A DNA stretch of 64,000 nt, from NCBI GenBank assembly GCA_045580085.1, contig JAZNND010000014.1, forward strand, positions 9,498 to 73,497, written 5' to 3'. Made by a program: the position numbers and the translations under genes. This DNA is from Eubacteriales bacterium. GTDB lineage: Bacteria; Bacillota; Clostridia; Oscillospirales; CAG-272. The stretch's first letter is position 1. The number at the start of each line of letters is the position of its first letter. Under the pieces are notes generated by a model. The model was not told the DNA's origin and made no database searches. It worked only from the letters and a program-made list of their open reading frames with translations. Below, piece after piece: positions 38,268 through 53,130 of the stretch.

Positions 38268-38297
38268 TTGACAAGCGGAAAGGGATTATGCTATACT
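38268..38297 (+). promoter_or_regulatory. Sigma-A promoter of the leuA-like/ACS1 operon
   Basis: TTGACA-18 bp-(TGn)TATACT. Confidence 0.75.
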
Positions 38298-38325
38298 CAT
38301 TGCATCAAAAAAAGGAGATACCGAT

Positions 38326-38418
38326 ATGGCACGCGCAATTGCAATGGCACTCGAGCTATCCGCTGTGATCCTAACGAAGTCTGTTCGTATGGGTGACAGT
38401 GTTGTTTGTCGTGCATGA
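38326..38418 (+). CDS. Putative 30-aa attenuation leader peptide MARAIAMALELSAVILTKSVRMGDSVVCRA
   Basis: Strong RBS AAAGGAG. Leu codons are CTC, CTA, CTA. Sits between the promoter and a terminator. Not in the ORF track. Confidence 0.65.
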   Translation: MARAIAMALELSAVILTKSVRMGDSVVCRA

Positions 38419-38463
38419 ATTGGCGTATCGGCAGCGGTATTTACCAAAGCTATAAGTGAATCC

Positions 38464-38505
38464 AATTCCCACGCGCTTCGCTGCGCCGTGGGAATTTTTA
38501 TTTTT
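38464..38505 (+). terminator. Attenuator terminator in the leader
   Basis: AATTCCCACG...CGTGGGAATT followed by TTTATTTTT. GAATTGG (38417-38423) can pair instead with CCAATTC (38462-38468). Confidence 0.7.
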
Positions 38506-38535
38506 AAATCGGCATGAGCCGAAAGGAGAAAAACT

Positions 38536-39936
38536 ATGCAGAACATTCATATCACAGATACCACGCTTCCCAAGAGAGAAGAGAGTGGAAACGCCGCCTA
38601 CAGCTTCCGCGAGAAGATTGAAATCGCGAAAACGCTTGACCGTATCGGTGTTTCGGTTATTGAAATGCCCCCCTTTACGGGCAGCCGTGCCGACATCCTT
38701 CTTTTGCACACGGTGCTTCCTGTGGTAAAAAACGCTGTTCTTTCCTGCCGTCCCGCTTTGAATGAAAGCTCTGTTGCCGCTGTGTGCGATGCCATGAAGG
38801 GCTATAAGAACGCTCGCGTTCATATCGCGGTGCCGACCTCTCCCGTACAGATGGAATATCATTGCCATAAGAAGCCCAAGCCCTTGATGGAGCTTGTGGA
38901 AAAGCTGATCCAAACCGCTATGTCTGCCGGTTTTGAGGTAGAGTTTTCGGCACTCGATGCTACCCGCGCCGAAAAGGAATTTCTCTACGAAGTGCTCTCG
39001 CTTGCCGTCAAGGCGGGCGTGAAATACATCACCCTTTGCGATAGCGAGGGAATCATGCTCCCCGATGAATTTGCCGCTTTTGTTTCCGATGTGAAGAAAA
39101 ACGTGGCACTCGCTGATTGCGAGATCGGCGTGGAATGCTCCGATTTTCTGCATATGGGCTGTGCGCTCGCCGTTGCCGCCATCGGCGCGGGGGCTGTGAC
39201 GGTGAAGACCGCTGTCGGTGTGGATGGAACTACCCCCCTGCCTGCGTTTGCTTCCGTTTTGAAGATGAGAGGGGATTCTCTTGGCATCACCTCGTCGCTG
39301 AACGGTGCAAGCCTTGGCAAAACCGCCGCCAAGATCACTGCCATGACCAACGCTTCGCAAGCTGGAAAAGCGGCGATCGGCGAAAATGACGCCGCAAGCC
39401 TCGTGCTTCGCAACACCGATGATGAAAAGACGGTTGCTTCCGCGGTAGCCGCCCTCGGATACGATCTTTCCGAGGAGGATATGCACAAGGTTTACGAGAG
39501 CTTCAAACGTCTGTCCGAAAAGAAAACCATAAGCGGTGCCGAGCTTGATGTTATCGTAGCCAGCAGCGCGCTTGAGGTTGCTCCTACTTTTGTCTTGAAG
39601 AGCTATTCCGTGACGTCGAGCAACGTTATTTCCGCATCGGCTCATATCGAGCTTGAAAAAGACGGCGCGCTCCTTCGCGGTATCAGCCTTGGTGACGGCC
39701 CCGTTGACGCCGCCTTCCGTGCGATTGAACAAATCGTGGGCCACCGTTTTGAGCTTGACGATTTCGGCATTCGTGCATTGACCGAAGGGCAAGAGGCTGT
39801 CAGTGAGACGGTTGTCCGTCTGCGTGCGGGCGGCAAGATCTATTCCGGCAGAGGCGTTTCCACCGACATCATCGGTTCGAGTGTCCGCGCCTATATCAGT
39901 GCCCTCAATAAGATCTGCTTTGAAGAAATGCTTTGA
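38536..39936 (+). CDS. LeuA (2-isopropylmalate synthase)-like protein with a degenerate active site and retained C-terminal regulatory domain
   Basis: DTTLPKREE replaces DTTLRDGEQ, ECSD replaces HCHND, and GERAGN is absent. 'GDGPVDAAFRAI...GRGVSTDIIGSSVRAYISALNK' is intact. Confidence 0.85.
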   Translation: MQNIHITDTTLPKREESGNAAYSFREKIEIAKTLDRIGVSVIEMPPFTGSRADILLLHTVLPVVKNAVLSCRPALNESSVAAVCDAMKGYKNARVHIAVPTSPVQMEYHCHKKPKPLMELVEKLIQTAMSAGFEVEFSALDATRAEKEFLYEVLSLAVKAGVKYITLCDSEGIMLPDEFAAFVSDVKKNVALADCEIGVECSDFLHMGCALAVAAIGAGAVTVKTAVGVDGTTPLPAFASVLKMRGDSLGITSSLNGASLGKTAAKITAMTNASQAGKAAIGENDAASLVLRNTDDEKTVASAVAALGYDLSEEDMHKVYESFKRLSEKKTISGAELDVIVASSALEVAPTFVLKSYSVTSSNVISASAHIELEKDGALLRGISLGDGPVDAAFRAIEQIVGHRFELDDFGIRALTEGQEAVSETVVRLRAGGKIYSGRGVSTDIIGSSVRAYISALNKICFEEML

Positions 39937-39962
39937 TCGTAAAGCAGAAAAGGAGAAACAGC

Positions 39963-42440
39963 ATGAAATTATCATTTTCCACCAACCGTTGGAAGGACAC
40001 CACCATGTCGGAATTCTTCGCCATGGCGAAGGAATACCGTTTTTCCGGCGTTGAAATTCACAGCATAGAGGACTTTGGAGAAAAGGAATGCTCCGCCTTG
40101 TATCATGAGGCGATGGCACTGAACCTTTCCATTGCCTGCCTTGATATGGGTGCCGATATCGGTGCCGCCGATGATACCGCCGCGAAGGAAGAGCTTTCGG
40201 CTTGCATTGCCGCCGCGCACAGATTGCATACCCCATACCTTCGTTTGCGTGCAGGCAAGGGCGAAGGCGCAGTAGAGAACAGCGAAAAATTCCTCACATA
40301 CGCCTTGGAAGAGGCACACAAAGCCGATCTTGTGCTTCTTATTGAGACGGTTGGCGCGTATGCCGATACGGGCGTTCTTGCGAATACGCTTCGCCGTTTT
40401 GCGGATGACTCTTTGGGTGCGCTTTGGGATGTTTACTATCCCTATACCGAAGCGGGTGAGAGTGCCGAAAAAACCATCCAGAACCTCGGTGCTGCCGTGA
40501 AGCACGTTCATATGAAGGATGCGGACGGCATGGATGAATTCCGCCCCGTGGGGGAAGGAAAGATGCCCCTTGCGGATTTTATGAACGCATTACGCTCTGT
40601 CAATTACGACGGATTTATTTCCGCCGAGTGGGATCCCGATTGGATGGAGGAGCTTGCGGATGCTTCTATCATCTTCCCTCATTTTGTAACCTACATGTCG
40701 CGGTATAAGGATCCTTCTCGCAATGTTGTGTCGCTGTATGAAAACAAGGCGAAAACGGGTAAGTTCGTTTGGAAAAAAGAAACGCTGATCGAAAAGACCT
40801 TCGGTCAGGTGCTTGATACCATGGTGGAGCTTTTTCCCGATCAATACGCTATCAAGTATACGACGCTTGACTACACGCGTACCTATGCCGAGTTCCGCGA
40901 CGACGTCGATACCTTCGCGCGCGCCCTTGTTTCACTCGGTGTGCGTGCGGGTAGCCATGTTGCACTTTGGGCAACCAACCTTCCCGAGTGGTACATTGCC
41001 TTTTGGGCGACCACCAAGATCGGTGCGGTTCTGGTTACCGTCAATACCGCTTACAAGATTCATGAAGTGGAATATCTTTTGCGTCAATCGGATACCCATA
41101 CGCTGATTCTCGAACAGGGATACCGTGATTCTCATTACGATGAGATTATCGCCGAGCTTTGCCCGGAGTTGGAAAATACCAAGCCGGGCGAACCGCTTCG
41201 TTCGCGCCGCTTGCCTTTCCTTCGCAATGTCATTACCATCGGCTATAAGCAAAAAGGGTGCCTTTCCTTTGATGAGACGGTTGCCCGCGCCGACCGTGTG
41301 CCTCAAGAAGAAGTCAATCGCATGGCGGCTGCGGTGGATATCCACGACGTTTGCAACATGCAATACACCTCCGGCACCACAGGTTTCCCCAAGGGCGTTA
41401 TGCTGACGCATTACAATGTTGTCAACAACGGCAAGTGCATCGGCGACCGTATGGATCTTTCTACCGCCGATCGGCTTATGATTCAAGTGCCTATGTTCCA
41501 CTGCTTCGGCATGGTGCTTGCCATGACCGCCTCCATGACACACGGCGTTACCATCTATCCCTTACCTTACTTCTCTCCGAAGCCTGCGCTCGCTTGCATT
41601 CATAACGAGCACATCACTGCTTTCCACGGTGTTCCTACCATGTTTATTGCTCTCTTGGAACATCCCGATTTCCCCAAGACCGATTTCTCGTATATGCGTA
41701 CGGGTATCATGGCGGGCTCACCTTGCCCTATTTCGGTTATGGAGGACGTTGTCAACAAGATGCACATGTCCGAGATTACCATCGTTTACGGGCAGACCGA
41801 GGCATCTCCCGGATGCACCATGAGTTCGACCGACGATCCGCTTGAGGTGCGTGTCGGTACCGTCGGCAGAAATCTGCCCGAGATCGAGTGCCGCATTGTA
41901 GATCCCGAGACGGGTGAAGAGCTCCCCGACAATGTAACGGGTGAGTTTGTAGCGCGCGGTTATAACATCATGAAGGGATATTATAAGATGCCCGAAGCAA
42001 CCTCTAAGGCAATCGATGCCGAAGGTTGGCTCCACACGGGCGACTTGGCTTGCCGCACCCCCGAAGGCAATTACCGTATTACGGGCCGCTTGAAGGATAT
42101 GATCATCCGCGGCGGCGAGAACATTTATCCCAAGGAGATCGAGGAATTTATTTATACCCATCCGAAGGTCAGCGATGTACAAGTCATCGGTGTGCCCGAC
42201 GAGCAATACGGCGAGGAAATCATGGCTTGCATCATTTTGAAAGAGGGCGAGAGCATGACCGAACAGGAAATGAAGGACTATGTGCTTGCGCATATGGCAA
42301 AGCATAAGGTGCCGAAATATATCGATTTTGTCGATGCCTTCCCGATGAATGCCGCAGGTAAGATTCTTAAGTATAAGATGCGTGAGGATGCCGTAGAAAA
42401 GCTTGGTTTGCATAAAGCTGCCAAGATCGTTACCGCGTAA
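39963..42440 (+). CDS. Acyl-CoA synthetase (ACS1, AMP-binding) with fused N-terminal AP_endonuc_2-type TIM barrel
   Basis: N-terminal 'LLIET', 'LWDVYYP', 'HVHMKD', 'SAEW'. C-terminal 'YTSGTTGFPKG', 'YGQTE', 'WLHTGDLA', 'RLKDMIIRGGENIYP', 'AAGKI'. Confidence 0.9.
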   Translation: MKLSFSTNRWKDTTMSEFFAMAKEYRFSGVEIHSIEDFGEKECSALYHEAMALNLSIACLDMGADIGAADDTAAKEELSACIAAAHRLHTPYLRLRAGKGEGAVENSEKFLTYALEEAHKADLVLLIETVGAYADTGVLANTLRRFADDSLGALWDVYYPYTEAGESAEKTIQNLGAAVKHVHMKDADGMDEFRPVGEGKMPLADFMNALRSVNYDGFISAEWDPDWMEELADASIIFPHFVTYMSRYKDPSRNVVSLYENKAKTGKFVWKKETLIEKTFGQVLDTMVELFPDQYAIKYTTLDYTRTYAEFRDDVDTFARALVSLGVRAGSHVALWATNLPEWYIAFWATTKIGAVLVTVNTAYKIHEVEYLLRQSDTHTLILEQGYRDSHYDEIIAELCPELENTKPGEPLRSRRLPFLRNVITIGYKQKGCLSFDETVARADRVPQEEVNRMAAAVDIHDVCNMQYTSGTTGFPKGVMLTHYNVVNNGKCIGDRMDLSTADRLMIQVPMFHCFGMVLAMTASMTHGVTIYPLPYFSPKPALACIHNEHITAFHGVPTMFIALLEHPDFPKTDFSYMRTGIMAGSPCPISVMEDVVNKMHMSEITIVYGQTEASPGCTMSSTDDPLEVRVGTVGRNLPEIECRIVDPETGEELPDNVTGEFVARGYNIMKGYYKMPEATSKAIDAEGWLHTGDLACRTPEGNYRITGRLKDMIIRGGENIYPKEIEEFIYTHPKVSDVQVIGVPDEQYGEEIMACIILKEGESMTEQEMKDYVLAHMAKHKVPKYIDFVDAFPMNAAGKILKYKMREDAVEKLGLHKAAKIVTA

Positions 42441-42520
42441 ATCCGCGCCCTCCCTTCCGCAAGGAAGGGGGGGAACTCGGTGTACAATTATCCTAAAAAC
42501 AGAAACGAAGAATATAAATT

Positions 42521-43306
42521 ATGATTATCGACGCACATTGCCACATATATCCCGATGCCATTGCTTCGCGCGCCGTGGCGGGGATCGGCAATTTTTATAA
42601 CATGCCGTTGCTTTACGACGGCACATTGGCGACGCTGAACGCCGCCCATGCGGCAAACGGCATCACGCATGCTGTCATTTTTTCGGTGGCGACAAAACCT
42701 TCTCAAACAGCGGGTATCAATCGCTTTATTGCCGAAAACGTGTCGGCTTCGAACGGCCGTTTTGTCGGACTTGGTACACTCCATCCGGACAGTGAAGACA
42801 TTAAGGGAGACATAGAGCACATTTTGGAGCTTGGATTGCGCGGTGTTAAATTGCATCCCGATATTCAACGCTTCAAGATCGATGACTACAGGTGCCTTAA
42901 AATCTATGAGCTCTGCGAGGGGAGACTTCCCGTTCTTTTGCATTGCGGCGACCACCGTTTTGATTTTTCCAATCCCAATCGCTTACGCCCTATCTTGGAG
43001 ATCTTTACCGAACTTCAAGTGATCGGCGCACATTTCGGCGGTTGGTCGGTTTGGAATGAGGCGGAAGATATGCTCAGCGGATTTTCCAATTTTTCGGTGG
43101 ATACCTCTTCTTCCTTCTATGCGCTCACACCCGAAAAAGCAACCGAAATTGTCCGCAAATTCGGTGCGGACCGCGTGATGTTTGCTACCGATTATCCCAT
43201 GTGGGATATCGGGGAAGAACTGGGGAGATTTTATAAGCTTTCTTTAACGGAGGACGAGAGGGAAGCGGTTCTTTGGCGCAACGCTGCCCGCATTTTTGGA
43301 TTTTAA
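42521..43306 (+). CDS. Amidohydrolase family protein (Amidohydro_2)
   Basis: 'IIDAHCH', 'GVKLHP', 'LHCG', 'AHFGG', 'FATDYP'. Confidence 0.88.
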   Translation: MIIDAHCHIYPDAIASRAVAGIGNFYNMPLLYDGTLATLNAAHAANGITHAVIFSVATKPSQTAGINRFIAENVSASNGRFVGLGTLHPDSEDIKGDIEHILELGLRGVKLHPDIQRFKIDDYRCLKIYELCEGRLPVLLHCGDHRFDFSNPNRLRPILEIFTELQVIGAHFGGWSVWNEAEDMLSGFSNFSVDTSSSFYALTPEKATEIVRKFGADRVMFATDYPMWDIGEELGRFYKLSLTEDEREAVLWRNAARIFGF

Positions 43307-43424
43307 AAAGCAAAAATGGAAAGGATTGTTTGCTTTTTTACTCGTGTTTCTCTATGAAACCGTTTGCTTTGCTTTTCGTTTGACCGTAGGGATTATTTCC
43401 TTGCAAAAAAATATTAAAAAACTC

Positions 43425-43453
43425 TTGACAAACGGTTTTTCGAGTGCTATAAT
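43425..43453 (+). promoter_or_regulatory. Consensus sigma-A promoter
   Basis: TTGACA-17 bp-(TGn)TATAAT. Confidence 0.9.
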
Positions 43454-43467
43454 CATGACATAATTGA

Positions 43468-43722
43468 AAAAGGCTATGACGAAGACGGACGAAGACGAGT
43501 GCTTCCAGAGAGTCGGTGGCGGTGTGAATCCGACAGTTACCCCCTTCAGTTCCCATCCCTTCTGAGCCGAAGTCCCCAACGCATCTGCAAGTAGGGCCTT
43601 CCGTATGGCTGCGTAAAAGCACGGAGCTTGTTTGAGCTCGCAGAGAGGCACCTTTGGTGCAATTTGAGTGGTACCGCGGATAATTTATTACCCGTCTCAA
43701 AGAAATTTGAGACGGTTTTTTT
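43468..43722 (+). ncRNA. T-box riboswitch, predicted Ile specifier (AUC at 43555-43557)
   Basis: Stem I K-turn GGCTATGACGAAG...CTTCTGAGCC, CAGAGA and GGTGTGA distal motifs, T-box AATTTGAGTGGTACCGCG (43661-43678), terminator CCGTCTCAAA/TTTGAGACGG followed by T7. Confidence 0.9.
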
Positions 43723-43751
43723 ATTTAAGATTAAGAAAAGGAGAACGCATC

Positions 43752-46016
43752 ATGAAAAACACGGTAAATTCTTTGGCGGAGGTTGCGGCACGTATCCGCG
43801 AGATGCGTGAGATTTTAGGCTTCAGTACCGCAGAAATGGCAGAAAAGACGGAAGTCGAAAAAGAGCTTTACGAGGAATACGAAAAGGGTGAGACCGATCT
43901 TCCTTTTTCCTTTATTCATAAATGCACGTTGGCATTCGGCGTAGACATTGCGGACCTTTTGGAAGGTAACAGCGCAAAGCTTTCTTCCTATACCGTTACG
44001 CGCAAAGGAAAAGGTCAGTTGACAGCCAAGGAAAACGGCATTGAGATTTCCAATATGGCGCCCCGTTTCCGCAACAAGCTTGCCGAACCTTATTGGGTTC
44101 GTTATGAATATTCAGAGGAACTTCAAAACCGCCCCATTCATACCACCACCCACGGCGGTCAGGAGTTTGACCTCGTGATCAGCGGTTCTTTGAAGGTGCA
44201 GATCGGTGAGCATACTGTTGTTTTGGAGGAGGGGGACAGCATTTACTATGAAAGCGGTACTCCCCACGGCATGATCGCTGTCGGCGGCAAGGACTGCGTG
44301 TTCTGCGCTGTCGTTCTTCCCGACGAGGATGTGTCCGATGAAAAAGAGATCGAAAAGTCCATCGTTACTGCAGGGGCTAAGCGTGAGCTTTTGATCAACA
44401 AGTTCATCAAGTGCAAAGAAAACGAAGAGGGTGTTTTGACCGAGATTTCTTTCACGGATGACGATAAATACAATTTCGCCTTTGATACCGTTGACGCTAT
44501 CGCGGATAAATATCCCGATAAGCTTGCGATGCTCCACGTTGCCAACGATAAGTCCGAACGCCGCTTCACATACCGTGACATCAAGCGCGAGTCCAACCGT
44601 TGCGCCAATTATTTAAAGTCTCTCGGCATCGGCAAGGGAGACCGCGTGGTCGTTGTTCTGAAAAGACATTATGAGTTCTGGTTTGCGATTCTCGCGCTTC
44701 ATAAGCTCGGTGCTGTTGCCATCCCCGCAACCAACCAGCTTAAGGCGCATGACTTTGTTTACCGCTTTAAGTCCGCAGGCGTTAAAGCCATCCTTTGCAC
44801 CGCCACCGATAAGACTGCGGAAGAGGTCGATATCGCAGCTGCCGAATGCCCGACGCTTACGGCGAAGATCCTTGTGAACGGCGACCGTGAGGGCTGGCAT
44901 AATTTCGGCGAAGAGTATAAGCTTTACAGTACGCATTTCGAACGCACCGCCGACGCGGCATGCGGAAACGATCCTATGATCATGTTCTTTACCTCGGGTA
45001 CGACCGGTTATCCGAAAATCGCCATGCACAGCTATAAGTATGCCCTCGGTCATTTTCCGACGGCACGCTATTGGCATGACATCCGCCCCGAGGATTTACA
45101 CTTGACCATTTCGGAAACCGGTTGGGGCAAAGCCCTTTGGGGCAAGCTTTACGGACAGTGGATGTGTGAAGGTGCGGTTTTTGTCTACGACTTTGACCGC
45201 TTCAATGCTTCCGATATCCTTCCGATGTTCTCGAAATATCATATCACCACCTTCTGTGCGCCTCCCACCATGTACCGTATGCTCATCAAAGACGATCTTT
45301 CGGGATACGATCTTTCGAGCATTCGCCACGCAACCACCGCGGGCGAGGCACTCAATCCCGAGGTGTTCTATCAGTTTAAAAAGGCGACCGGGTTGACTAT
45401 CATGGAGGGCTTCGGACAGACAGAAACCACCCTCACCATCGGCAATTTGGTCGGCACCACGCCCAAGCCCGGCTCTATGGGTAAAGCGATGCCGCTTTAC
45501 GATATCGATATCGTGGATACCGACGGTAATCCCGTCGGCACGGGTGAAAACGGTGAGATCGTTGTTCGCACCGACAAGCGTGTTCCCCCCGGACTCTTCC
45601 TCGGTTATTACAACGATGAGGAGAAAACGCATGACGCATGGCACGACGGTATGTATCATACGGGCGACGTTGCTTGGAGAGACGAGGACGGCTTCTTCTG
45701 GTATGTCAGCCGCATCGATGACGTCATCAAGTCCTCCGGTTACCGCATCGGTCCGTTTGAGATCGAGAACGTCATCATGGAGCTGCCTTATGTGCTTGAA
45801 TGCGGTGTTTGCGCCGCGCCCGATGAGGTCAGAGGGCAAGTAGTCAAGGCTTGCATTGTGTTGACCAAGGGCACCGAAGGCACCGATGCACTCAAAAAAG
45901 AAATTCAAGAGTATGTAAAAACGCATACGGCACCGTATAAATATCCCCGTATCGTTGAATTCCGTACCGAGCTTCCCAAAACCATCAGCGGTAAAATCCA
46001 ACGCAATAAGCTCTAA
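43752..46016 (+). CDS. XRE-HTH/cupin/medium-chain acyl-CoA synthetase fusion (ACS2)
   Basis: N-terminal 'RIREMRE...EMAEKT', cupin 'THGGQEF...GDSIYY...PHGM', then 'FTSGTTGYPK', 'GFGQTE', 'YHTGD', 'KSSGYRIGPFEIE', 'SGKIQR'. Confidence 0.92.
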   Translation: MKNTVNSLAEVAARIREMREILGFSTAEMAEKTEVEKELYEEYEKGETDLPFSFIHKCTLAFGVDIADLLEGNSAKLSSYTVTRKGKGQLTAKENGIEISNMAPRFRNKLAEPYWVRYEYSEELQNRPIHTTTHGGQEFDLVISGSLKVQIGEHTVVLEEGDSIYYESGTPHGMIAVGGKDCVFCAVVLPDEDVSDEKEIEKSIVTAGAKRELLINKFIKCKENEEGVLTEISFTDDDKYNFAFDTVDAIADKYPDKLAMLHVANDKSERRFTYRDIKRESNRCANYLKSLGIGKGDRVVVVLKRHYEFWFAILALHKLGAVAIPATNQLKAHDFVYRFKSAGVKAILCTATDKTAEEVDIAAAECPTLTAKILVNGDREGWHNFGEEYKLYSTHFERTADAACGNDPMIMFFTSGTTGYPKIAMHSYKYALGHFPTARYWHDIRPEDLHLTISETGWGKALWGKLYGQWMCEGAVFVYDFDRFNASDILPMFSKYHITTFCAPPTMYRMLIKDDLSGYDLSSIRHATTAGEALNPEVFYQFKKATGLTIMEGFGQTETTLTIGNLVGTTPKPGSMGKAMPLYDIDIVDTDGNPVGTGENGEIVVRTDKRVPPGLFLGYYNDEEKTHDAWHDGMYHTGDVAWRDEDGFFWYVSRIDDVIKSSGYRIGPFEIENVIMELPYVLECGVCAAPDEVRGQVVKACIVLTKGTEGTDALKKEIQEYVKTHTAPYKYPRIVEFRTELPKTISGKIQRNKL

Positions 46017-46101: not shown

Positions 46102-46368
46102 AAAGGCATTGACGAAGAGGATGCTTGGCACAGCTTACAGAGAACCGGCGGTTGGTGTGAGTCGGGAGTGGGTGTCTTGCGGTCGGTAGCTTCCGAGCCG
46201 ATGGGAAGAAAGCGTTTCGCCGTAGAACCCATCCGTGATTGCTGCGTTAAGGCATAGGGCTTAATGGAGTCCGAGAGTGGCACCTATGGTGCAATTTGAG
46301 TGGTACCGCGGGATAAGTTTCTTATACCCGTCTCAAAGTCGTCAGTATCTTTGAGACGGGTTTTCTTG
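46102..46368 (+). ncRNA. T-box riboswitch, predicted Val specifier (GUA at 46186-46188)
   Basis: GGCATTGACGAAG...CTTCCGAGCC, CAGAGA and GGTGTGA motifs, T-box AATTTGAGTGGTACCGCG (46293-46310), terminator CCCGTCTCAAAG/CTTTGAGACGGG followed by T4. Confidence 0.9.
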
Positions 46369-46418
46369 TTCTTTTCCGTCCCGAAGAAACCATCAAAAGC
46401 AGAAAAGGAAAATCTATC

Positions 46419-48716
46419 ATGGAACAACAGATCACAGGTCTTGATCTCAAGATCAGGGAAATGGCATCCCGTATCCGCGCTTTGCGTGAGATCGAGGCAC
46501 TTTCCGTTGCTGACATGGCGAAAAAGACCAATGTCAGTGAGGCGGAATACTTAGCTTGTGAAAACGGCGAGAGCGATTTGAACTTTGCTTTCATCTACCG
46601 TTGCGCACTTGCGTTCAATGTGGACGTTACCGATATTATTGAAGGTACGAGCCCCAAGCTCGGTGCTTTCACTGTGACGAGAAGCGGAGAAGGGCAGCGC
46701 ATTGAGCAGGCGCATGGCATGGTTTATTATAACCTGGCACCTTCTTTCCGTAACCGTATTGCCGAGCCTCTTCTTGTACGCGCCGCATACAGCACTGATG
46801 CCGAGCATGCCGATATTGAGCTAACCACCCATGACGGGCAGGAGTGCGATATTGTTCTTAAAGGTTCTCTTAAGGTGCAGGTCGGTGAACATAAGGTCGT
46901 TCTTCACGAAGGTGACAGCATTTATTACGATTCGTCTACGCCGCACGGTATGATCGCCGCGGAGGGAGAGGACTGTCTCTTCTACGCCTTTGTGCTCAAT
47001 CCCTCGGGCGAACCTATTCCCGAGCTTGAGACTTCGACCAAGGCTTCCGTTGTGGATAAGCCTCGCAAGAAAGAGAGTAAAGAGCCTCGCGTATACGATA
47101 AATGGGTGGATGCCGAGGAGGATGAGAACGGTGTTCTCAAAAAGATCTCCTTCCGTAACGCCGAAAAATTCAATTTTGCTTTCGATATTGTTGATGTTCT
47201 TGCGAAAGAAAAGCCGGATAAGCTCGCCATGCTTCATCTTGACAGAGATAAGACCGAGCGCCGCTTTACCTTCCGTGATATCAAACGCGCTTCCAACCAG
47301 TGCGCGAACTATTTCAAGTCTCTCGGCATCAAAAAAGGCGACCGCGTCATGCTGGTGCTCAAACGTCACTATCAGTTCTGGTTTGCCATGCTTGGACTTA
47401 ACAAGCTTGGTGCCATTGTTATTCCCGCCACCAATCAGCTGAAATCTCATGACTTCAGCTACCGCTTCGGTGCCGCCGGTATCAGTGCCATTCTTTGCAC
47501 CTCGGATGCCGAAACGGTGAGCGAAGCTGAGATTGCGCTTGCCGAGTCTCCTTCCGTTGTTCACCGTATCATTGTCGGAGAAGCACGTGAGGGTTGGCGC
47601 AACTTTGACGATGAGTATACGCTTTACAGCACTCATTTCCACCGCACCGCAGAAAGTCCTTGCGGCGACGACTTGATGCTCATGTTCTTTACCTCGGGCA
47701 CCACGGGTTATCCCAAGATTGCCGCACACAATTATAAGTACGCGCTTGGGCATTTCTTAACCGCTAAGTATTGGCACGGTGTAAACCCCGAAGGGCTTCA
47801 CTTCACCATCTCGGATACCGGATGGGCAAAGGCAATGTGGGGTAAGCTTTACGGTCAGTGGATGGCAGAGGGCGCAACCTTTGTATATGACTTTGTCCGC
47901 TTCAGCGCGGCGGATATTCTTCCCTTGTTTGCTAAATATCATATCACTACTTTCTGTGCGCCTCCTACTATGTACCGTATGATGATCAAGCAAGATCTGA
48001 CGAAATACGATATGACTTCCGTAGAGCGCGCGACCACCGCGGGCGAGGCACTCAACCCCGAGGTATTCCGTCAGCTTGAAAAGCTCATGGGGCTTAAGAT
48101 CATGGAAGGCTTCGGTCAGTCCGAGTGCACGCTCATGATCGGTAATTTGCTCGGTGATTCGCATAAACTCGGCTCGATGGGTAAACCTGTTCCGCTTTAC
48201 GATGTGGATATCGTGGATCCCGACGGTAAGAGCGTCGGTGTCGGTGAAACGGGTGAGATCGTTGTACATACCGAAAACGGCGCACCTTGCGGTCTGTTCA
48301 CGGGCTACTATCTGGACGAAGAAAAAACGCGTGACGCATGGCACGACGGTCTTTATCACACGGGCGATACCGCGTGGAGAGACGAGGACGGATTCTATTG
48401 GTATGTCGGCCGTGTGGATGATGTCATCAAGTCCTCCGGTTACCGCATCGGTCCGTTTGAGATCGAGAATGTTATCATGGAGTTGCCTTATGTTCTTGAG
48501 TGCGGCATTTCCGCGGCTCCCGATCCTGTCAGAGGTCAGGTTGTCAAGGCAAGCATTGTTTTGACCAAGGGAACGGAAGGCACGGAAGAGCTGAAAAAAG
48601 AAATCCAAGAGTACGTCAAGCAAAAGACAGCACCTTACAAATATCCCAGAATCGTTGTATTCCGTGATGAATTGCCCAAGACCACCAGCGGCAAGATCAT
48701 CCGCAACAAGCTTTGA
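46419..48716 (+). CDS. XRE-HTH/cupin/medium-chain acyl-CoA synthetase fusion (ACS3), paralog of ACS2
   Basis: Same domain order and motifs as 43752-46016. Confidence 0.92.
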   Translation: MEQQITGLDLKIREMASRIRALREIEALSVADMAKKTNVSEAEYLACENGESDLNFAFIYRCALAFNVDVTDIIEGTSPKLGAFTVTRSGEGQRIEQAHGMVYYNLAPSFRNRIAEPLLVRAAYSTDAEHADIELTTHDGQECDIVLKGSLKVQVGEHKVVLHEGDSIYYDSSTPHGMIAAEGEDCLFYAFVLNPSGEPIPELETSTKASVVDKPRKKESKEPRVYDKWVDAEEDENGVLKKISFRNAEKFNFAFDIVDVLAKEKPDKLAMLHLDRDKTERRFTFRDIKRASNQCANYFKSLGIKKGDRVMLVLKRHYQFWFAMLGLNKLGAIVIPATNQLKSHDFSYRFGAAGISAILCTSDAETVSEAEIALAESPSVVHRIIVGEAREGWRNFDDEYTLYSTHFHRTAESPCGDDLMLMFFTSGTTGYPKIAAHNYKYALGHFLTAKYWHGVNPEGLHFTISDTGWAKAMWGKLYGQWMAEGATFVYDFVRFSAADILPLFAKYHITTFCAPPTMYRMMIKQDLTKYDMTSVERATTAGEALNPEVFRQLEKLMGLKIMEGFGQSECTLMIGNLLGDSHKLGSMGKPVPLYDVDIVDPDGKSVGVGETGEIVVHTENGAPCGLFTGYYLDEEKTRDAWHDGLYHTGDTAWRDEDGFYWYVGRVDDVIKSSGYRIGPFEIENVIMELPYVLECGISAAPDPVRGQVVKASIVLTKGTEGTEELKKEIQEYVKQKTAPYKYPRIVVFRDELPKTTSGKIIRNKL

Positions 48717-49378
48717 TGAATATGAAATACGAACCTAAACGAATTACACTTTTTGCAGGGCATTACGGCAGTGGAAAAACCAACATCGCCGTAAACTATG
48801 CTTTGCAATTGGCGAAAAACGGCATGCCCGTAACCATCGCCGACCTTGATATCGTCAATCCTTATTTCCGCACCAAAGACAGTGCCGCAGAACTTGAGGC
48901 GGCAGGTGTTCGCCTCATTTCCTCTGCCTATGCAAACTCCAATGTCGATTTGCCCGCCTTGCCGGCTGAGCTGTATGCTTTGACGGAGGACAAAAGCCGT
49001 TACGCCGTGTTTGACGTTGGCGGCGACGACAGAGGCGCACTGGCACTTGGCAGATACGCACCCGCCATCAAGGAGGAAGGGAAGTACGAAATGATTTTCG
49101 TTGCCAACTTCTATCGCCCCTTGACGCGAAACGCCGAAGAGGCACTTGAGGTGATGCGTGAGATTGAGGCGGCGGGCGGTATCCCCTTTACGGGAATCGT
49201 TCATAACTCTAACGTCGGTCCCGAAACGACTCCCGATGATATTCGCGCCAAAAGCGCGGAAGCGGAAAAACTATCCGCGATGGCGGCTTTGCCCATTCTC
49301 TTCACCGCGGCGGAAAGCACGGTGGCAAAGGGCATGGACAACACGTTGCCGCTTGATTTGCAAAAGAAAATTTTTTAA
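48716..49378 (+). CDS. P-loop ATP-binding protein (MinD/ParA/CobQ-like) at the head of the oxidoreductase genes
   Basis: 'GHYGSGKTN', 'DLDIVNPYFR', 'DVGGD'. TGATG stop/start overlap with ACS3. Confidence 0.8.
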   Translation: MNMKYEPKRITLFAGHYGSGKTNIAVNYALQLAKNGMPVTIADLDIVNPYFRTKDSAAELEAAGVRLISSAYANSNVDLPALPAELYALTEDKSRYAVFDVGGDDRGALALGRYAPAIKEEGKYEMIFVANFYRPLTRNAEEALEVMREIEAAGGIPFTGIVHNSNVGPETTPDDIRAKSAEAEKLSAMAALPILFTAAESTVAKGMDNTLPLDLQKKIF

Positions 49379-49397
49379 ATAAAGGACGGAATGAAAA

Positions 49398-49604
49398 ATG
49401 GCAAAAGTGACATTTAATACCGACCTTTGCAAGGGCTGCGGGCTTTGCGTCGATGCTTGCCCGAAGAAACTGCTCGTGATTGCGAAGGATAAGATCAACA
49501 AGAAAGGGCATTCTCCTGCCGAAATGACCGATATGAGTAAGTGCATCGGTTGCGCCTTCTGTGCGACCATGTGCCCCGATTGCGTCATTCGTGTTGAGAA
49601 ATAA
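49398..49604 (+). CDS. 2[4Fe-4S] ferredoxin-like delta subunit of 2-oxoacid:ferredoxin oxidoreductase
   Basis: CKGCGLCVDACP and CIGCAFCATMCP. Confidence 0.93.
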   Translation: MAKVTFNTDLCKGCGLCVDACPKKLLVIAKDKINKKGHSPAEMTDMSKCIGCAFCATMCPDCVIRVEK

Positions 49605-49617
49605 GGAGGAAAAAGAA

Positions 49618-50679
49618 ATGTCTGAGAAAGTACTTATGAAGGGCAACGAGGCGATTGCGGAGGCTGCTATTTTGGCAGGTTGCCGCCATTACTTCGGCTA
49701 CCCCATCACCCCTCAAACCGAGATTGCCGCTTATATGGCAAAACGCATGCCCAAGATCGGCGGCGTATTTCTCCAAGCGGAGAGTGAGATCTCCGCGATC
49801 AATATGGTTTACGGTGTTGCAGGCGCGGGACTTCGCGTAATGACCTCCTCCTCCAGCCCCGGAATTTCGCTCAAGAGCGAAGGCCTTTCCTATCTTGCGG
49901 GCAGTGATCTTCCCGCACTGATCGTCAATGTCCAGAGAGGCGGCCCCGGTCTCGGCGGTATTCAGCCCTCCCAGTCCGACTATTTCCAAGCCACTCGCGG
50001 CGGCGGCCACGGTGACTATCATATGCTGGTATATGCGCCTGCTTCCGTTCAGGAAATGGCTGATTTGACCGTTCTTGGTTTTGAGAAGGCAGACGAATAC
50101 CGTATGACTGCCATGATCCTTGCTGACGGTACGATGGGCCAAATGATGGAGCCTGTTGCGCTTCCCAAGGGCGAGAGCCGTACCTTCCCGAAGCCTTGGG
50201 CTTTGACGGGTACCGGTTGCGAGCGTAAGCACAATATCGTCAACTCCCTTTTCCTCAAGCCCGAAACGCTTGAGAAGGAGAATTTCGCGCGTTATGAGCG
50301 TTACCGTAAGATCGAAGAGACAGAAGCTATGTATGAGTCCTTCATGATGGAAGATGCAGAATACTGCGTTGTTGCCTTCGGTATCGCCGCGCGCGTATCC
50401 AAAAACGCCATCGTAGAAGCACGCAAAGCGGGCGTTAAGGTCGGTATGATCCGTCCTATCACCGTTTGGCCCTTCCCGAAGGCACCCCTTGCCGAGGCTG
50501 CAAAGCAAGTCAAGGCATTCCTTTCCGTAGAGCTTTCCATGGGGCAGATGATCGAAGACATCGAGCTGGCTACCCGTTGCGCACGTCCTGTGCTTCTTTG
50601 CAACCGTGCGGGCGGCATGATCCCCTCGCCCGAGGAAGTTTACGCGAAAATCATGGATATGGCAAAGGAGGTAAAATAA
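49618..50679 (+). CDS. vorB: 2-oxoisovalerate (3-methyl-2-oxobutanoate):ferredoxin oxidoreductase alpha-type subunit
   Basis: 'GNEAIAEAAI', 'YPITPQTE', 'SSSSPGISLK', 'RGGPGLGGIQPSQSDYFQ', 'VELSMGQM'. ATG at 49618 follows GGAGG. Confidence 0.85.
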   Translation: MSEKVLMKGNEAIAEAAILAGCRHYFGYPITPQTEIAAYMAKRMPKIGGVFLQAESEISAINMVYGVAGAGLRVMTSSSSPGISLKSEGLSYLAGSDLPALIVNVQRGGPGLGGIQPSQSDYFQATRGGGHGDYHMLVYAPASVQEMADLTVLGFEKADEYRMTAMILADGTMGQMMEPVALPKGESRTFPKPWALTGTGCERKHNIVNSLFLKPETLEKENFARYERYRKIEETEAMYESFMMEDAEYCVVAFGIAARVSKNAIVEARKAGVKVGMIRPITVWPFPKAPLAEAAKQVKAFLSVELSMGQMIEDIELATRCARPVLLCNRAGGMIPSPEEVYAKIMDMAKEVK

Positions 50680-50680
50680 G

Positions 50681-51433
50681 ATGAGCATCGTATTTGATAA
50701 GCCCAAGTCTTTGGCGGATGTTCCCTTCCATTACTGCCCCGGATGCACCCACGGTATCATTCACCGTTTGGTGGCTGAGGCGATTGATGAGCTTGGTATT
50801 GAGGGTAAGGCTATCGGCGTAGCCCCTGTAGGCTGTGCTGTTATGGCGTATGACTATTTTACCTGCGATATGATCGAGGCGGCACACGGCCGCGCACCCG
50901 CCGTTGCGACGGGTATCAAGAGAGGCAGACCTGACAATATTGTATTCACCTATCAGGGTGACGGCGACCTTGCCTCCATCGGTATGGCAGAGACCGTACA
51001 CGCCGCCGCAAGAAACGAAAACATCACCATCATCTTCGTTAACAATGCCATTTACGGTATGACGGGCGGTCAGATGGCCCCCACCTCGCTTCCCGGTCAG
51101 GTTACGCAGACCTCGCCTTACGGCAGAGACGTTAAGGTGCAAGGCTATCCTGTTAAGGTTGCGGAGCTTCTTTCGGCACTTGACGGACCTACCTATATCG
51201 AGCGTGTTGCCGTAAACAATGTTAAAAACGTAAAGAATGCGAAGAAGGCGATCCTCAAAGCATTCCGCAATCAGGTAGAGGGCAAGGGCTTCTCTCTTGT
51301 TGAAGTCGTTTCTTCCTGCCCCACCAACTGGGGTATGACGCCCTCGAAGGCACTGCAATGGGTGGATGAAAAGATGATCCCCTACTATCCTCTCGGCGTA
51401 TACCGCGACAAGACTGCCGACGAAGGCAAATAA
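50681..51433 (+). CDS. 2-oxoacid:ferredoxin oxidoreductase beta (ThDP-binding) subunit
   Basis: 'HYCPGCTHG', 'AHGRAPA', 'YQGDGDLASIG...NNAIYGMTGGQ', 'CPTNW'. Confidence 0.92.
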   Translation: MSIVFDKPKSLADVPFHYCPGCTHGIIHRLVAEAIDELGIEGKAIGVAPVGCAVMAYDYFTCDMIEAAHGRAPAVATGIKRGRPDNIVFTYQGDGDLASIGMAETVHAAARNENITIIFVNNAIYGMTGGQMAPTSLPGQVTQTSPYGRDVKVQGYPVKVAELLSALDGPTYIERVAVNNVKNVKNAKKAILKAFRNQVEGKGFSLVEVVSSCPTNWGMTPSKALQWVDEKMIPYYPLGVYRDKTADEGK

Positions 51434-51453
51434 GAGAAAGGAAGGATACAGTT

Positions 51454-51993
51454 ATGAATACCACGAATCTTCTTATTGCAGGCTTCGGCGGACAGGGTGT
51501 TCTGTTTGCGGGCAAGTTTATCGCTTATAAAGGGCTCCTTGAAGGCAGACAGCTGAGCTGGCTCCCCTCTTACGGTCCCGAGATGCGCGGCGGCACCGCA
51601 AACTGCAGTGTAATCCTCAGTGACGATCCCGTCGGCTCTCCCATCGTTTCGAATCCCGATGTTCTGATGGTTATGAATCTCCCTTCTCTTGATAAATATG
51701 AGGATGCGGCAGTCAAGGGCGCAAAGATCTTTATTGACTCCACACTCATCGAGAGAAAGGTGCGCCGCACCGATGTCTCCGCTTACTACATCCCCGCGAC
51801 TCAGCTTGCCAAGGATGCCGGCTTCCCCACGCTTGCCAACATGATTATGGTTGGTAAAATGATTCGTGAAAGCGGCCTTATTTCCTATGACGGTTTGCGC
51901 GAGGCACTCGGTAAAGTTGTTTCCGCAAAGCATGCCGACCTTCTTGAGGTTAACCTCAAGGCGATCGAAACAGGCTATAATTACGAAGGCTGA
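51454..51993 (+). CDS. 2-oxoacid:ferredoxin oxidoreductase gamma subunit
   Basis: 'AGFGGQGVL', 'PSYGPEMRGGTANC'. Confidence 0.92.
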   Translation: MNTTNLLIAGFGGQGVLFAGKFIAYKGLLEGRQLSWLPSYGPEMRGGTANCSVILSDDPVGSPIVSNPDVLMVMNLPSLDKYEDAAVKGAKIFIDSTLIERKVRRTDVSAYYIPATQLAKDAGFPTLANMIMVGKMIRESGLISYDGLREALGKVVSAKHADLLEVNLKAIETGYNYEG

Positions 51994-52019
51994 TTTTCGA
52001 TAAAGAAAGGGTAAAAACA

Positions 52020-53087
52020 ATGTTGAATATCAAGATTGAAAAAACCACGGCTCCCAAAGTGAAGCCTCAAAAAGGTGAAAAGCTTGGTTTCGGCCACATC
52101 TTCACCGATCATATGTTTGTGATGAATTATACCGAGGGCAAGGGTTGGCACGATGCCCGTATTGTGCCTTACGGTCCGATTTCTCTTGATCCTTCCGCTA
52201 TGGTGTTCCATTACGGTCAGGAAATGTTTGAGGGCTTGAAGGCATATAAAGGTGCTGACGGCAAGGCGTACCTTTTCCGTCCTGATATGAACGCTAAGCG
52301 TGCCAATAAGTCCAATGACCGCCTTTGCATTCCTCACATTCCCGAAGAGGATTTTGTAGAGGCTGTCAGAGCCGTTGTAGAGGTGGATAAGGATTGGATT
52401 CCCGAAGAGGAGGGTACTTCTCTTTACATTCGTCCTTTTGTGATCGCAACCGATGAATTCCTCGGTGTTGCTCCCTCCAAGACCTATCTTTTCATGGTTA
52501 TCCTTTCTCCCAGCGGAGCTTATTATGCCAGCGGACTTGCACCTGTAGGCATTTGGATTGAGGACGAATATGTTCGTGCCGTCAAAGGCGGTATGGGCTT
52601 TGCTAAGACCGGCGGTAACTACGCCGCATCCTTGATCGCGCAGGTTAAGGCTCATGACGATGGCTATAGCCAGGTGCTCTGGCTCGACGGTGTGGAAAGA
52701 AAGTACATCGAAGAGGTCGGTGCCATGAATATCTTCTTCAAGATCGATGGCAAGGTTGTGACTCCTATGCTCAACGGCAGCATTCTCCCCGGTGTCACCC
52801 GTGATTCGGTTCTCCGTCTCTGCCGCGAATGGGGCTATGAGGTTGAGGAAAGAAGAATCTCCGTAGAAGAGCTCGTTGCAGCTGCCAAGTGCGGCAAGCT
52901 GGAAGAGGTTTGGGGTACGGGTACGGCGGCTGTTGTTTCCCCTGTTGGCAAGCTTCGCTATTGCGATGATGTCATGCAGATCGGCGGCGGCGAGATCGGA
53001 GAGCTGACACAAAAGCTTTACGATGAGATCACCGGTATCCAATGGGGCAAACGCCCTGATCCGTTTGGCTGGAGAAAAGAGGTTTAA
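52020..53087 (+). CDS. ilvE: Branched-chain amino acid aminotransferase
   Basis: 'FHYGQEMFEGLKAY', 'AKTGGNYA', 'EEVGAMNIF', 'ILPGVTR', 'GTAAVVSP'. Confidence 0.95.
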   Translation: MLNIKIEKTTAPKVKPQKGEKLGFGHIFTDHMFVMNYTEGKGWHDARIVPYGPISLDPSAMVFHYGQEMFEGLKAYKGADGKAYLFRPDMNAKRANKSNDRLCIPHIPEEDFVEAVRAVVEVDKDWIPEEEGTSLYIRPFVIATDEFLGVAPSKTYLFMVILSPSGAYYASGLAPVGIWIEDEYVRAVKGGMGFAKTGGNYAASLIAQVKAHDDGYSQVLWLDGVERKYIEEVGAMNIFFKIDGKVVTPMLNGSILPGVTRDSVLRLCREWGYEVEERRISVEELVAAAKCGKLEEVWGTGTAAVVSPVGKLRYCDDVMQIGGGEIGELTQKLYDEITGIQWGKRPDPFGWRKEV

Positions 53088-53095
53088 TCCTTTGT

Positions 53096-53130
53096 GGGCT
53101 GTCATATTCGACAGCCCCTTTCTCCTCTTT
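53096..53130 (+). terminator. Terminator after ilvE (GGGCTGTC-family hairpin)
   Basis: GGGCTGTC-ATATTC-GACAGCCC followed by CTTT. Confidence 0.65.

Follow-up and report, generated by a model that had tools for sequence, protein, structure and literature searches.

Three acyl-CoA synthetases, each behind its own putative amino-acid sensor, in a gene cluster of gut and rumen Clostridia predicted to make isoleucine, valine and leucine from branched short-chain acids

The 64,000-nt stretch of DNA analysed here (the window; contig C14, positions 9498-73497, of genome G000, an Eubacteriales bacterium with an assembly of 2.46 Mb in 67 contigs, 96.5% complete) contains three AMP-forming acyl-CoA synthetase (ACS) genes in a row on the + strand, and the last of them leads into genes for a ferredoxin-dependent 2-oxoacid oxidoreductase and a branched-chain aminotransferase. 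The locus raises the question of which acids the three synthetases activate, and why each of them should stand behind a promoter and leader of its own. Rumen anaerobes and methanogens make leucine, isoleucine and valine from isovalerate, 2-methylbutyrate and isobutyrate by reductive carboxylation, as is known from classical labelling physiology, and the need of rumen and gut anaerobes for such isoacids has been recognised physiologically for decades; to our knowledge, the genes for isoacid activation had not been assigned. We propose, with a probability of roughly three in four, that the cluster is a salvage route that makes isoleucine, valine and leucine from the branched short-chain acids of the gut and rumen. 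An earlier note on this DNA had put forward the same core reading, and it gains support here from T-box leaders, the missing canonical pathways, conserved gene order, co-occurrence across genomes, and the likeness of two of the synthetases to the characterised enzymes MacsMa and MbcS.

Every gene from 38268 to 55501 is on the + strand, and the cluster is laid out as three units, each with its own promoter followed by a leader. The three leaders are each directly preceded by one of the three best sigma-70 matches (12/12, 11/12 and 11/12) in the 18-kb region scanned. All three synthetases match the Pfam AMP-binding domain (E 1.5e-91, 1.9e-68 and 1.8e-63) and exceed the Pfam cut-offs for both PF00501 and PF13193, in agreement with the three consecutive ACS units described earlier. 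The genes from ACS3 to IlvE overlap or are separated by short gaps, and no strong terminator lies between them; the continuation of ACS3 into an ATPase, four oxidoreductase subunits and ilvE without a recognisable terminator is thus as previously noted. The features are as follows.

38268-38297, + strand: promoter of unit 1 (TTGACA, 18 nt, TATACT, with TG), 11/12 sigma-70 matches
38326-38418, + strand: leader open reading frame (ORF) P0124, 30 codons, behind a Shine-Dalgarno site, found by sequence inspection
38466-38505, + strand: intrinsic terminator of the unit-1 leader (stem 38466-38494 and U tract), from the fold
38536-39936, + strand: LeuA-like gene, 466 aa (HMGL-like barrel and LeuA_dimer), from Pfam and motif comparison
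39963-42440, + strand: ACS1, a xylose-isomerase-like TIM barrel fused to a FadD/PRK12583-type ACS (the ORF opens at 39933; likely ATG at 39963)
42521-43306, + strand: Amidohydro_2 gene, from Pfam
43425-43453, + strand: promoter of unit 2 (TTGACA, 17 nt, TATAAT), 12/12 sigma-70 matches
43467-43715, + strand: Ile T-box leader, from Infernal (AUC at 43555-43557, T-box sequence at 43666-43679, terminator at 43692-43715)
43752-46016, + strand: ACS2, HTH_19 and Cupin_2 fused to a MacsMa/MbcS-like ACS, from Pfam and NCBIfam
46053-46081, + strand: promoter of unit 3 (TTGACA, 17 nt, TATACT), 11/12 sigma-70 matches
46100-46375, + strand: Val T-box leader, from Infernal (GUA at 46186-46188, T-box sequence at 46298-46311, terminator stem at 46327-46360 and U tract)
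46419-48716, + strand: ACS3, HTH_19 and Cupin_2 fused to a MacsMa/MbcS-like ACS, from Pfam, NCBIfam and PDB
48713-49378, + strand: P-loop NTPase with a weak CbiA/ParA-like match, from Pfam and alignment
49398-49604, + strand: ferredoxin-like delta subunit, 2x[4Fe-4S], from Pfam
49561-50679, + strand: 2-oxoacid:ferredoxin oxidoreductase alpha subunit, from NCBIfam VorB NF005507
50681-51433, + strand: oxidoreductase beta subunit, thiamine pyrophosphate (TPP)-binding, from TPP_enzyme_C
51454-51993, + strand: oxidoreductase gamma subunit, from POR
52020-53087, + strand: IlvE, branched-chain aminotransferase, from PRK13357 and TIGR01123
53225-54508, + strand: metY-like gene, next after ilvE
54532-55449, + strand: metA, next after metY
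55473-55501, + strand: first strong terminator downstream of unit 3, from the terminator scan

The leaders of ACS2 and ACS3 are both recovered by Infernal, run in E-value mode against the T-box model RF00230 as had been advised, at 43467-43702 with 76.0 bits (E 3.8e-15) and at 46100-46338 with 84.7 bits (E 2.2e-17) respectively, and both cover model positions 1-219. They share GAGUGGUACCGCGG as the T-box sequence, with a terminator hairpin and U tract directly after it, and the N of the UGGN bulge is U in both, which we take to be consistent with an A73 discriminator. The specifier was read in a fixed register, the codon being the bases three to one before the last loop base that precedes the 3' strand of the basal Stem I helix; elsewhere in the same genome this register gives AAC in the leader of aspS, UGG in that of trpB, AUC in that of ileS, and GUC in the leader of an operon that ends with a class I aminoacyl-tRNA synthetase (putative valS). 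The specifiers obtained in this way are AUC (Ile) for ACS2 and GUA (Val) for ACS3, the same codons that the earlier note had called, and the ileS leader shares the AUC+C specifier with the ACS2 leader. Both T-boxes are predicted to bind tRNA and to allow read-through. The 41 tRNAs that aragorn lists in the genome include tRNA-Val(UAC) and tRNA-Leu(GAG), and none of the 41 is a tRNA-Ile, which we take as an assembly gap.

The leaders of relatives were examined in upstream regions from the best 80 of at least 591 related loci, and the specifiers of each set were counted with a parser that preserves the register of the helix. Upstream of ACS2 the T-box core motif occurs in 50/52 of these loci, upstream of ACS3 in 74/77, and upstream of the LeuA-like gene that opens unit 1 in 25/28. 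All 75 of the ACS3 leaders parsed have GUA (78 were examined, the window included, and three lack a T-box core), and of the 48 ACS2 leaders that could be parsed, out of 53 examined, 45 carry AUC. Among 23 parsed leaders of the first unit (28 examined), 20 read CUC and three read CUG, so that its identification as a leucine unit (Leu unit) holds in all 23. The base preceding AUC in the ACS2 leaders is not fixed and may be C, U or G, and the shifted readings CAU and UAU are therefore disfavoured; across dozens of species the flanking bases vary around the conserved Ile and Val specifiers. This conservation ties the three units to isoleucine, valine and leucine in many species.

ACS2 and ACS3 are 65% identical over their full length. 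Their catalytic parts match MacsMa of Methanosarcina acetivorans (PDB 3ETC) with 608 bits, and MbcS (NF047394) is the best NCBIfam model for both (449 bits for ACS2, 438 bits for ACS3), although neither reaches the equivalog cut-off of 850 bits and they are not MbcS members. A passage of PMC10455477 gives 2-methylbutyrate as the preferred substrate of MacsMa, and one in PMC10026030 describes MbcS as selective for 2-methylbutyrate and isobutyrate, with isovalerate poorly used. ACS2 is accordingly predicted to be a 2-methylbutyrate-CoA ligase and ACS3 an isobutyrate-CoA ligase. ACS1 belongs to a different clade, with PDB matches to feruloyl-, coumaroyl- and fatty-acyl-CoA ligases and PRK12583 as its best NCBIfam model (712 bits against a cut-off of 832), and is predicted to be an isovalerate-CoA ligase. 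Poor use of isovalerate by MacsMa and MbcS would explain why the Leu unit has a synthetase of another clade, and the data fit a division of labour in which alpha-branched acids would go to the MacsMa-like ACS2 and ACS3 and isovalerate to ACS1.

Comparison of the two paralogues (positions at least 90% conserved within ACS2 and within ACS3 and different between them) gives 16 paralogue-specific positions, five in the catalytic domain and 11 in the N-terminal helix-turn-helix (HTH)-cupin module. One of the five catalytic-domain positions (position 470 of ACS3) is a perfect discriminator that follows an invariant Trp, being Gly in 55/55 ACS2 sequences and in MacsMa and Ala in 80/80 ACS3 sequences; the smaller residue is in the enzyme predicted for the larger acid, as would be expected at a candidate selectivity position. 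The HTH-cupin module appears to be under constraint, with 55 invariant positions common to both paralogues in the first 200 residues. Of 8000 protein clusters scored for its sequence, 7283 fall in the length range of the fusion; the best 120 clusters listed all have cupin and AMP-binding domains, 117 have an HTH domain as well, and the source names for them are solely 'AMP-binding protein', the generic annotation that the earlier note had anticipated. A PDB sequence search with the module gave weak matches only, and HTH-cupin and ACS also occur as two adjacent genes (e.g. L109:8341-10597 and L113:18493-20003).

The oxidoreductase is assigned as a 2-oxoisovalerate:ferredoxin oxidoreductase (VOR), its alpha subunit scoring 526.7 bits against a cut-off of 399 for NCBIfam VorB NF005507, with beta (TPP_enzyme_C), gamma (POR) and delta (Fer4) subunits adjoining. 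Three oxidoreductases of this superfamily are encoded in the genome, a pyruvate:ferredoxin oxidoreductase (PFOR), the VOR of the window, and an indolepyruvate:ferredoxin oxidoreductase (IOR), only one being of VOR type. IlvE exceeds the cut-offs of PRK13357 (505.6 bits against 307) and TIGR01123 (419.9 against 250) and is the sole class IV aminotransferase found in the genome. The suggestion of a VOR and IlvE shared by the three synthetases agrees with the genome having one of each, with the correction that the window places both behind the Val sensor only. The P-loop protein encoded between ACS3 and the VOR has conserved motifs GHYGSGKTN and DLDIVNPYFR and only generic names in the ESM Atlas; an assignment as a NifH- or ApbC-like Fe-S ATPase was rejected, as there is no conserved cysteine in 66 sequences. 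Among loci fetched by way of the P-loop alignment, the delta subunit (ferredoxin) gene is next in 78/80. The block of P-loop, ferredoxin and VorABG genes together with IlvE is also found at 59-61% identity in rumen Spirochaetales/Sphaerochaetaceae metagenome-assembled genomes (MAGs; L167, L180 and L183), with the fused ACS preceding it in L180 and L183 and the L167 contig beginning inside IlvE, which suggests horizontal spread beyond Clostridia unless a binning error is responsible.

Profile searches of the genome (96.5% complete) show that it lacks the canonical pathways to these amino acids, a check that the earlier note had proposed: there is no ilvC, ilvD, leuB or leuC, nor a true ilvB or leuA. 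No match was obtained for ilvC or ilvD; the best ilvB match, a 665-aa ORF at C29:17992-19671, is below threshold (321.9 bits against 538); leuA gives matches of 141 and 112 bits against a cut-off of 599, the window's LeuA-like gene included; leuB gives 31 bits only, also below threshold; and leuC gives a sub-threshold match to an aconitase-like ORF. The leuC match and the second leuA match lie together on C8 and are suspected to be a citrate-synthase/aconitase pair. The C29 ORF is a TPP enzyme of unassigned type, in a genome without ilvC or ilvD.

A survey of the synteny, which had been recommended, finds the arrangement conserved in hundreds of MAGs of gut and rumen Clostridia (best 80 of at least 591 loci examined); the MAGs found to be nearest, again from gut and rumen, bear the labels Acutalibacteraceae, Oscillospiraceae or Eubacteriales. 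The P-loop gene lies directly 3' of ACS3 in 61/73 loci with at least 1 kb downstream, the full set of P-loop, ferredoxin, VorABG and IlvE genes is present in 39/49 loci with at least 4.6 kb downstream, ACS2 is upstream of ACS3 in 54/66 loci with enough upstream sequence, and the Leu unit is also present in 30/80. ACS3 stands alone with its Val T-box in eight loci, and in at least two such MAGs the VOR cluster is on another contig behind ACS2 (L022 with L195, and L092 with L135). At L022:12301-13080 a carbon-nitrogen hydrolase gene starts 3 bases past the stop of the lone ACS3, with lysine biosynthesis genes next.

Cross-tabulation of 151 genomes of the family, G000 included, relates these units to the canonical genes. 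A strong match to the fused ACS (E below 1e-220) occurs in 88/151 genomes, and ilvC and leuB are above cut-off in 54 and 50. With at least two fused ACS copies, 66/77 genomes lack ilvC; with one copy, 10/11 have it, and among ten single-copy loci fetched there are six clear and one probable AUC T-boxes and three without a T-box core. The TIM and ACS1 pair is found in 73 genomes, 68 of which lack leuB. This co-occurrence is the pattern expected if ACS3, ACS2 and ACS1 replace the valine, isoleucine and leucine branches. Of the genomes that have ilvC and lack leuB, 10/11 carry the Leu unit (TIM and ACS1). Leu-unit loci were fetched from seven of these ten (G070, G080, G114, G123, G036, G075 and G147), and in 4/7 the unit is joined directly to IlvE and/or VOR genes: it runs into P-loop-ferredoxin-VorABG in G070, into IlvE-P-loop-ferredoxin-VorABG in G080, and into IlvE in G123 and G036. 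In G114 it is followed by metY and metA and then the IlvE-P-loop-ferredoxin-VorABG set, and a PFOR-type enzyme (TIGR02176, ~1698 bits) follows directly after the Leu unit in G075 and after IlvE in G036; the G147 locus has no VOR, PFOR or IlvE neighbour. A CUC T-box heads the Leu unit in 6/7 loci examined (six of those fetched and locus L103 of G104; the G080 locus starts at the gene). The joining of these Leu units to VOR or PFOR and IlvE fits carboxylation of isovaleryl-CoA.

Unit 1 of the window differs from what the earlier note had described. Neither is ACS1 directly behind the leader nor does the unit consist of leader and ACS1 alone, since the LeuA-like gene (38536-39936) intervenes and a fused TIM barrel and an amidohydrolase are also present. 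The leader is not a T-box and has instead the small ORF P0124 and a stable terminator (fold z = -3.9 against shuffles). The leader-peptide attenuator with Leu codons that had been proposed can be recognised in its promoter, its Shine-Dalgarno site, an ORF of 30 codons and a terminator; it has no run of Leu codons. Ile, Leu or Val make up 10/30 residues of P0124, with just three dispersed Leu codons, and folds constrained by a ribosome positioned on any of the Leu codons or on the stop codon gave no antiterminator alternative, the terminator persisting in every case. A same-genus genome (G027:C25, locus L114) retains a CUC T-box at this position, and the relative L082 (3613-3705, P0125) carries a comparable short ORF that contains three Leu codons in succession and shares its last two residues with P0124. 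The leader reads as a Leu T-box recently replaced in the window's genome by an element of leader-peptide type, and two types of attenuator have possibly been exchanged in front of one gene (compare window 38268-38535 with L114 and L082).

The LeuA-like protein has a clear LeuA_dimer domain (PF08502, E 2.2e-29) and falls under the isopropylmalate synthase (IPMS) equivalog cut-offs, its best score being 281.6 bits against 532. Relative to the IPMS structure 3RMJ, RDGEQ is replaced by PKREE and HCHND by ECSDF, and in 37 homologues the IPMS motif positions are variable or deleted and the HxH positions have no His; the RDGEQ and HxH residues presumably bind metal and substrate in IPMS. Because the catalytic residues are lost, the protein is probably a pseudoenzyme or Leu sensor. 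Its regulatory domain is the most conserved part (mean pairwise identity of 66% among the 37 homologues, against 40% for the barrel). TIM::ACS1 is immediately 3' of the LeuA-like gene in 37/37 loci, mostly with an overlap or a gap of 10 bases or fewer. The TIM barrel (PF01261) of the window's ACS1 has all four presumed metal ligands, taking Glu/Asp/His/Glu to be the metal-binding set of a xylose-isomerase-like barrel; across 32 homologues E128 is kept in 30, D156 in 18 (N in 12), H183 in 24 and E222 in 17, and the tetrad not being conserved, the domain appears to be degenerate. A PDB sequence search with the TIM domain gave weak matches only. About 20 of the 73 TIM/ACS1 matches contain one stop codon, and in some genomes the TIM part and ACS1 may be two adjacent genes. 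An ACS1 homologue that lacks the TIM part is present in some 15 to 17 genomes, and leuB in 10/17 of these. The amidohydrolase keeps the metal ligands HxH, His, His and Asp, has only generic names in the ESM Atlas, and is missing from several Leu-unit loci.

We suggest the following scheme. Each synthetase would be transcribed from a separate promoter and would respond to amino-acid starvation through a sensor of its own, so that uncharged tRNA-Ile, tRNA-Val or tRNA-Leu would cause the cognate leader to be read through and the cognate synthetase to be transcribed; the Leu sensor would be the CUC/CUG T-box in relatives and the leader ORF with its terminator in the window's genome. ACS2, ACS3 and ACS1 would then convert 2-methylbutyrate, isobutyrate and isovalerate to CoA thioesters at the expense of ATP, the single four-subunit VOR with its P-loop partner would reductively carboxylate the acyl-CoAs to 2-oxoacids using reduced ferredoxin, which the genome's PFOR could supply, and the single IlvE would aminate the 2-oxoacids.

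Several observations weigh against this scheme or limit it. The gene content, the T-boxes with their specifiers, their conservation, the lack of canonical pathways and the co-occurrence patterns are observed, and from these the substrates of the synthetases, the direction of the VOR and induction on starvation are inferred. ACS1, ACS2 and ACS3 are below the curated cut-offs of families with known substrates. Both T-boxes score under the Rfam gathering score of 93 bits, and a scan of the window at that threshold returned nothing; three other T-boxes in the same genome exceed it. The unit-1 leader of the window lacks a Leu-codon run, and no antiterminator appears in masked folds. In the window the VOR and IlvE genes are solely behind the Val T-box, and starvation for leucine or isoleucine alone would thus not obviously induce the shared enzymes, whose expression would then depend on read-through or on a basal level; other genomes have the VOR behind ACS2 or the Leu unit instead. 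The cluster is not simply a replacement, since ilvC is also present in 21/88 genomes with the fused ACS, and leuB in 5/73 of those with the Leu unit. Because the genomes under comparison are related to one another, the co-occurrence counts do not represent independent events, and the cross-tabulations make them look more independent than they are. Finally, a simple pathway does not account for the LeuA-like protein, the TIM barrel, the amidohydrolase, the HTH-cupin modules or the P-loop protein.

The gene content is itself neutral as to direction, as IlvE and VOR work reversibly and are established in many anaerobes as enzymes for fermenting branched-chain amino acids (BCAA), and the cluster could be read as degrading BCAA to acyl-CoAs, with the synthetases running in reverse or recycling acids. 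The regulation points the other way, for T-boxes are established to turn genes on when the cognate tRNA is uncharged; AMP-forming synthetases moreover conserve no ATP, the units occur where ilvC or leuB is missing, and neither a butyrate kinase nor an ADP-forming ACS domain is above cut-off in the genome, so the usual ATP-yielding exits of BCAA fermentation are not found. We regard a catabolic role as very improbable and the least credible of the alternatives. A use of the synthetases in making branched acyl-CoA primers for the branched-chain fatty acids of the membrane, rather than amino acids, is very unlikely, if less so than the other alternatives: the NCBIfam model that ACS2 and ACS3 match best is MbcS, and a passage of PMC10026030 gives its role in Staphylococcus aureus as primer supply. 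Lipid synthesis would not account for control by the charging of tRNA-Ile, tRNA-Val and tRNA-Leu, for co-transcription of synthetase genes with VOR and IlvE, or for the link to absence of ilvC and leuB; the two uses are also compatible, and the acyl-CoAs could feed both lipids and amino acids.

The presence of the Leu unit in 10/11 genomes with ilvC and without leuB could also be taken to indicate a new leucine route from 2-oxoisovalerate, in which isopropylmalate would be the product of the LeuA-like protein and the work of LeuCD and LeuB would fall to the TIM barrel, ACS1 and the amidohydrolase; the invariable placement of the LeuA-like gene before TIM::ACS1 (37/37 loci) and the intact metal ligands of the amidohydrolase are in keeping with this. 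The first enzyme of such a route, however, has lost the IPMS motifs (RDGEQ variable or deleted and no HxH His in 37 homologues), the metal tetrad of the TIM barrel is not conserved (E222 in 17/32, H183 in 24/32), the units in question are joined to VOR or PFOR and IlvE genes, and several such loci have no amidohydrolase, so that we consider it highly improbable. There is somewhat more to be said for a plain BCAA auxotroph whose T-box-controlled cluster does something unrelated, such as activating other acids, since the substrates of ACS1-3 are predicted only, and 28/52 genomes of the family without the fused ACS also lack ilvC, indicating that auxotrophy is common in the family. It remains very improbable in view of three sensors that name exactly the three BCAA, of IlvE and a VorB-family enzyme within the operon, and of nearest characterised enzymes that take exactly alpha-branched acids. 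Salvage of branched acids into the three amino acids is thus the reading that we prefer.

The domains that this salvage route leaves over raise the possibility of a second layer of control at the protein level, which we put forward tentatively and as less probable than not. The LeuA-derived pseudoenzyme would dock on the TIM barrel of ACS1 and confer feedback by leucine, the HTH-cupin modules would sense isoleucine and valine or the acids and may bind DNA, and the cysteine-free P-loop NTPase would be an obligatory helper of a biosynthetic VOR. The pairing of the LeuA-like gene with TIM::ACS1 in 37/37 loci, the difference in identity between barrel and regulatory domain (40% against 66%) and the split gene pairs are the support for it. 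Complex prediction for the LeuA-like protein with the TIM domain gives a score of 0.52, against 0.00 for the best of three controls, with runs agreeing in at least 43% of contacts and a partner pLDDT (predicted local distance difference test) of at least 83. The mark that it passes is reached by 58/80 solved complexes and 2/110 mismatched pairs, and scores of 0.60 or under include only seven of those 80 solved complexes and both passing mismatches, so the prediction points weakly towards docking. A role of the LeuA-like protein as a Leu-binding regulatory subunit that docks on ACS1 is therefore speculative, as is the parallel idea that the cupin modules provide protein-level control of the same kind. 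Promoter regions of 45 ACS2 and 70 ACS3 leaders were aligned in search of an HTH operator, and inspection by eye found only the -35 and -10 elements in common and no general palindrome. In one sub-lineage about 25 conserved bases, including ATATCACAAAT, come after the -10 box and before the Ile T-box begins (ACS2 leaders L038, L039, L040, L042, L044, L047, L055, L061, L073, L075 and L076), and this stretch may be a candidate protein-binding site.

Much of the system is already known in its parts, namely the chemistry, VOR, IlvE, T-boxes and the MacsMa/MbcS clade. As in classical reductive carboxylation, the acid is predicted to pass through acyl-CoA and, by a ferredoxin-dependent oxidoreductase, 2-oxoacid to amino acid; the classical work gives no genes, whereas a regulated cluster with one synthetase per acid is proposed here. 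Attenuation by uncharged tRNA with a specifier that matches the pathway product is familiar from T-box-controlled biosynthesis operons of Firmicutes, such as the ilv-leu operon of Bacillus subtilis under its Leu T-box, but in the present cluster three specifiers split one salvage pathway by substrate, and acyl-CoA synthetases are regulated rather than ilv and leu enzymes. ACS2 and ACS3 share their catalytic clade with MacsMa and MbcS, both of which prefer alpha-branched C4/C5 acids, and differ in their additional ~240-residue N-terminal HTH and cupin module, T-box control, VOR and IlvE neighbours and a score under the MbcS cut-off. The LeuA-like protein has the HMGL-like barrel and LeuA_dimer architecture of LeuA (IPMS), but lacks the catalytic motifs of 3RMJ and is paired with TIM::ACS1 and not with LeuBCD. 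The VOR has the delta, alpha, beta and gamma subunits of archaeal and bacterial VORs, with alpha above the VorB cut-off, and differs in being preceded by a dedicated P-loop NTPase and in its presumed biosynthetic direction. BirA and PutA are enzyme-regulator fusions in which, as in the HTH-cupin ACS, a DNA-binding-type domain is fused to an enzyme, the enzyme in fusions of the BirA/PutA type acting on the sensed metabolite; in the HTH-cupin ACS any DNA binding would be putative, and its operons already carry RNA sensors. In the open full-text literature (subscription papers and supplements lying outside it) we found no description of the cluster or its three-sensor wiring, nor of fused HTH-cupin synthetases, a LeuA-derived pseudoenzyme or the P-loop partner, and a term search of main text in PMC3766115, a comparative study of T-box and riboswitch regulons, gave no mention of these genes.

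The cluster would put the isoacid requirement on a genetic footing that is concrete and open to test, and predicts substrates for three enzyme types named only 'AMP-binding protein' in databases. Since 67 of the 88 genomes with the fused ACS lack ilvC, predictions of auxotrophy would change, and there is a bearing on isoacid feed additives and on cross-feeding between amino-acid fermenters and fibre degraders. It further illustrates cleanly how the specificity of enzymes may be read from the regulatory RNAs in front of their genes.

Some neighbouring and related loci deserve mention. There is no strong terminator between ilvE and metY in the window, and metY and metA are possibly co-transcribed with unit 3. 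The gene metY, for an O-acetylhomoserine sulfhydrylase, is also beside the cluster in the relatives L051, L060, L064, L083, L099, L113, L114, L131 and L148, accompanied by metA wherever the sequence reaches (not in L060, L064 and L131). Elsewhere in the genome, an operon at C49:46158-53400 (L119, 1-7900) has a T-box of 120.2 bits with an apparent UAC (Tyr) specifier, followed by genes for a sodium:solute symporter, an AMP-forming ACS (545 aa), IorA, IorB and a PaaK-like ligase; by analogy this would be a parallel route in which arylacetates are salvaged as aromatic amino acids through reductive carboxylation, and its presence speaks in favour of the salvage reading of the cluster. A further T-box of 117.1 bits at C47:14651-16343 (L002), with an apparent GUC (Val) specifier, precedes a gene for a GpsA-like NAD-dependent dehydrogenase, which is followed by the start of a class I aminoacyl-tRNA synthetase gene, probably valS.

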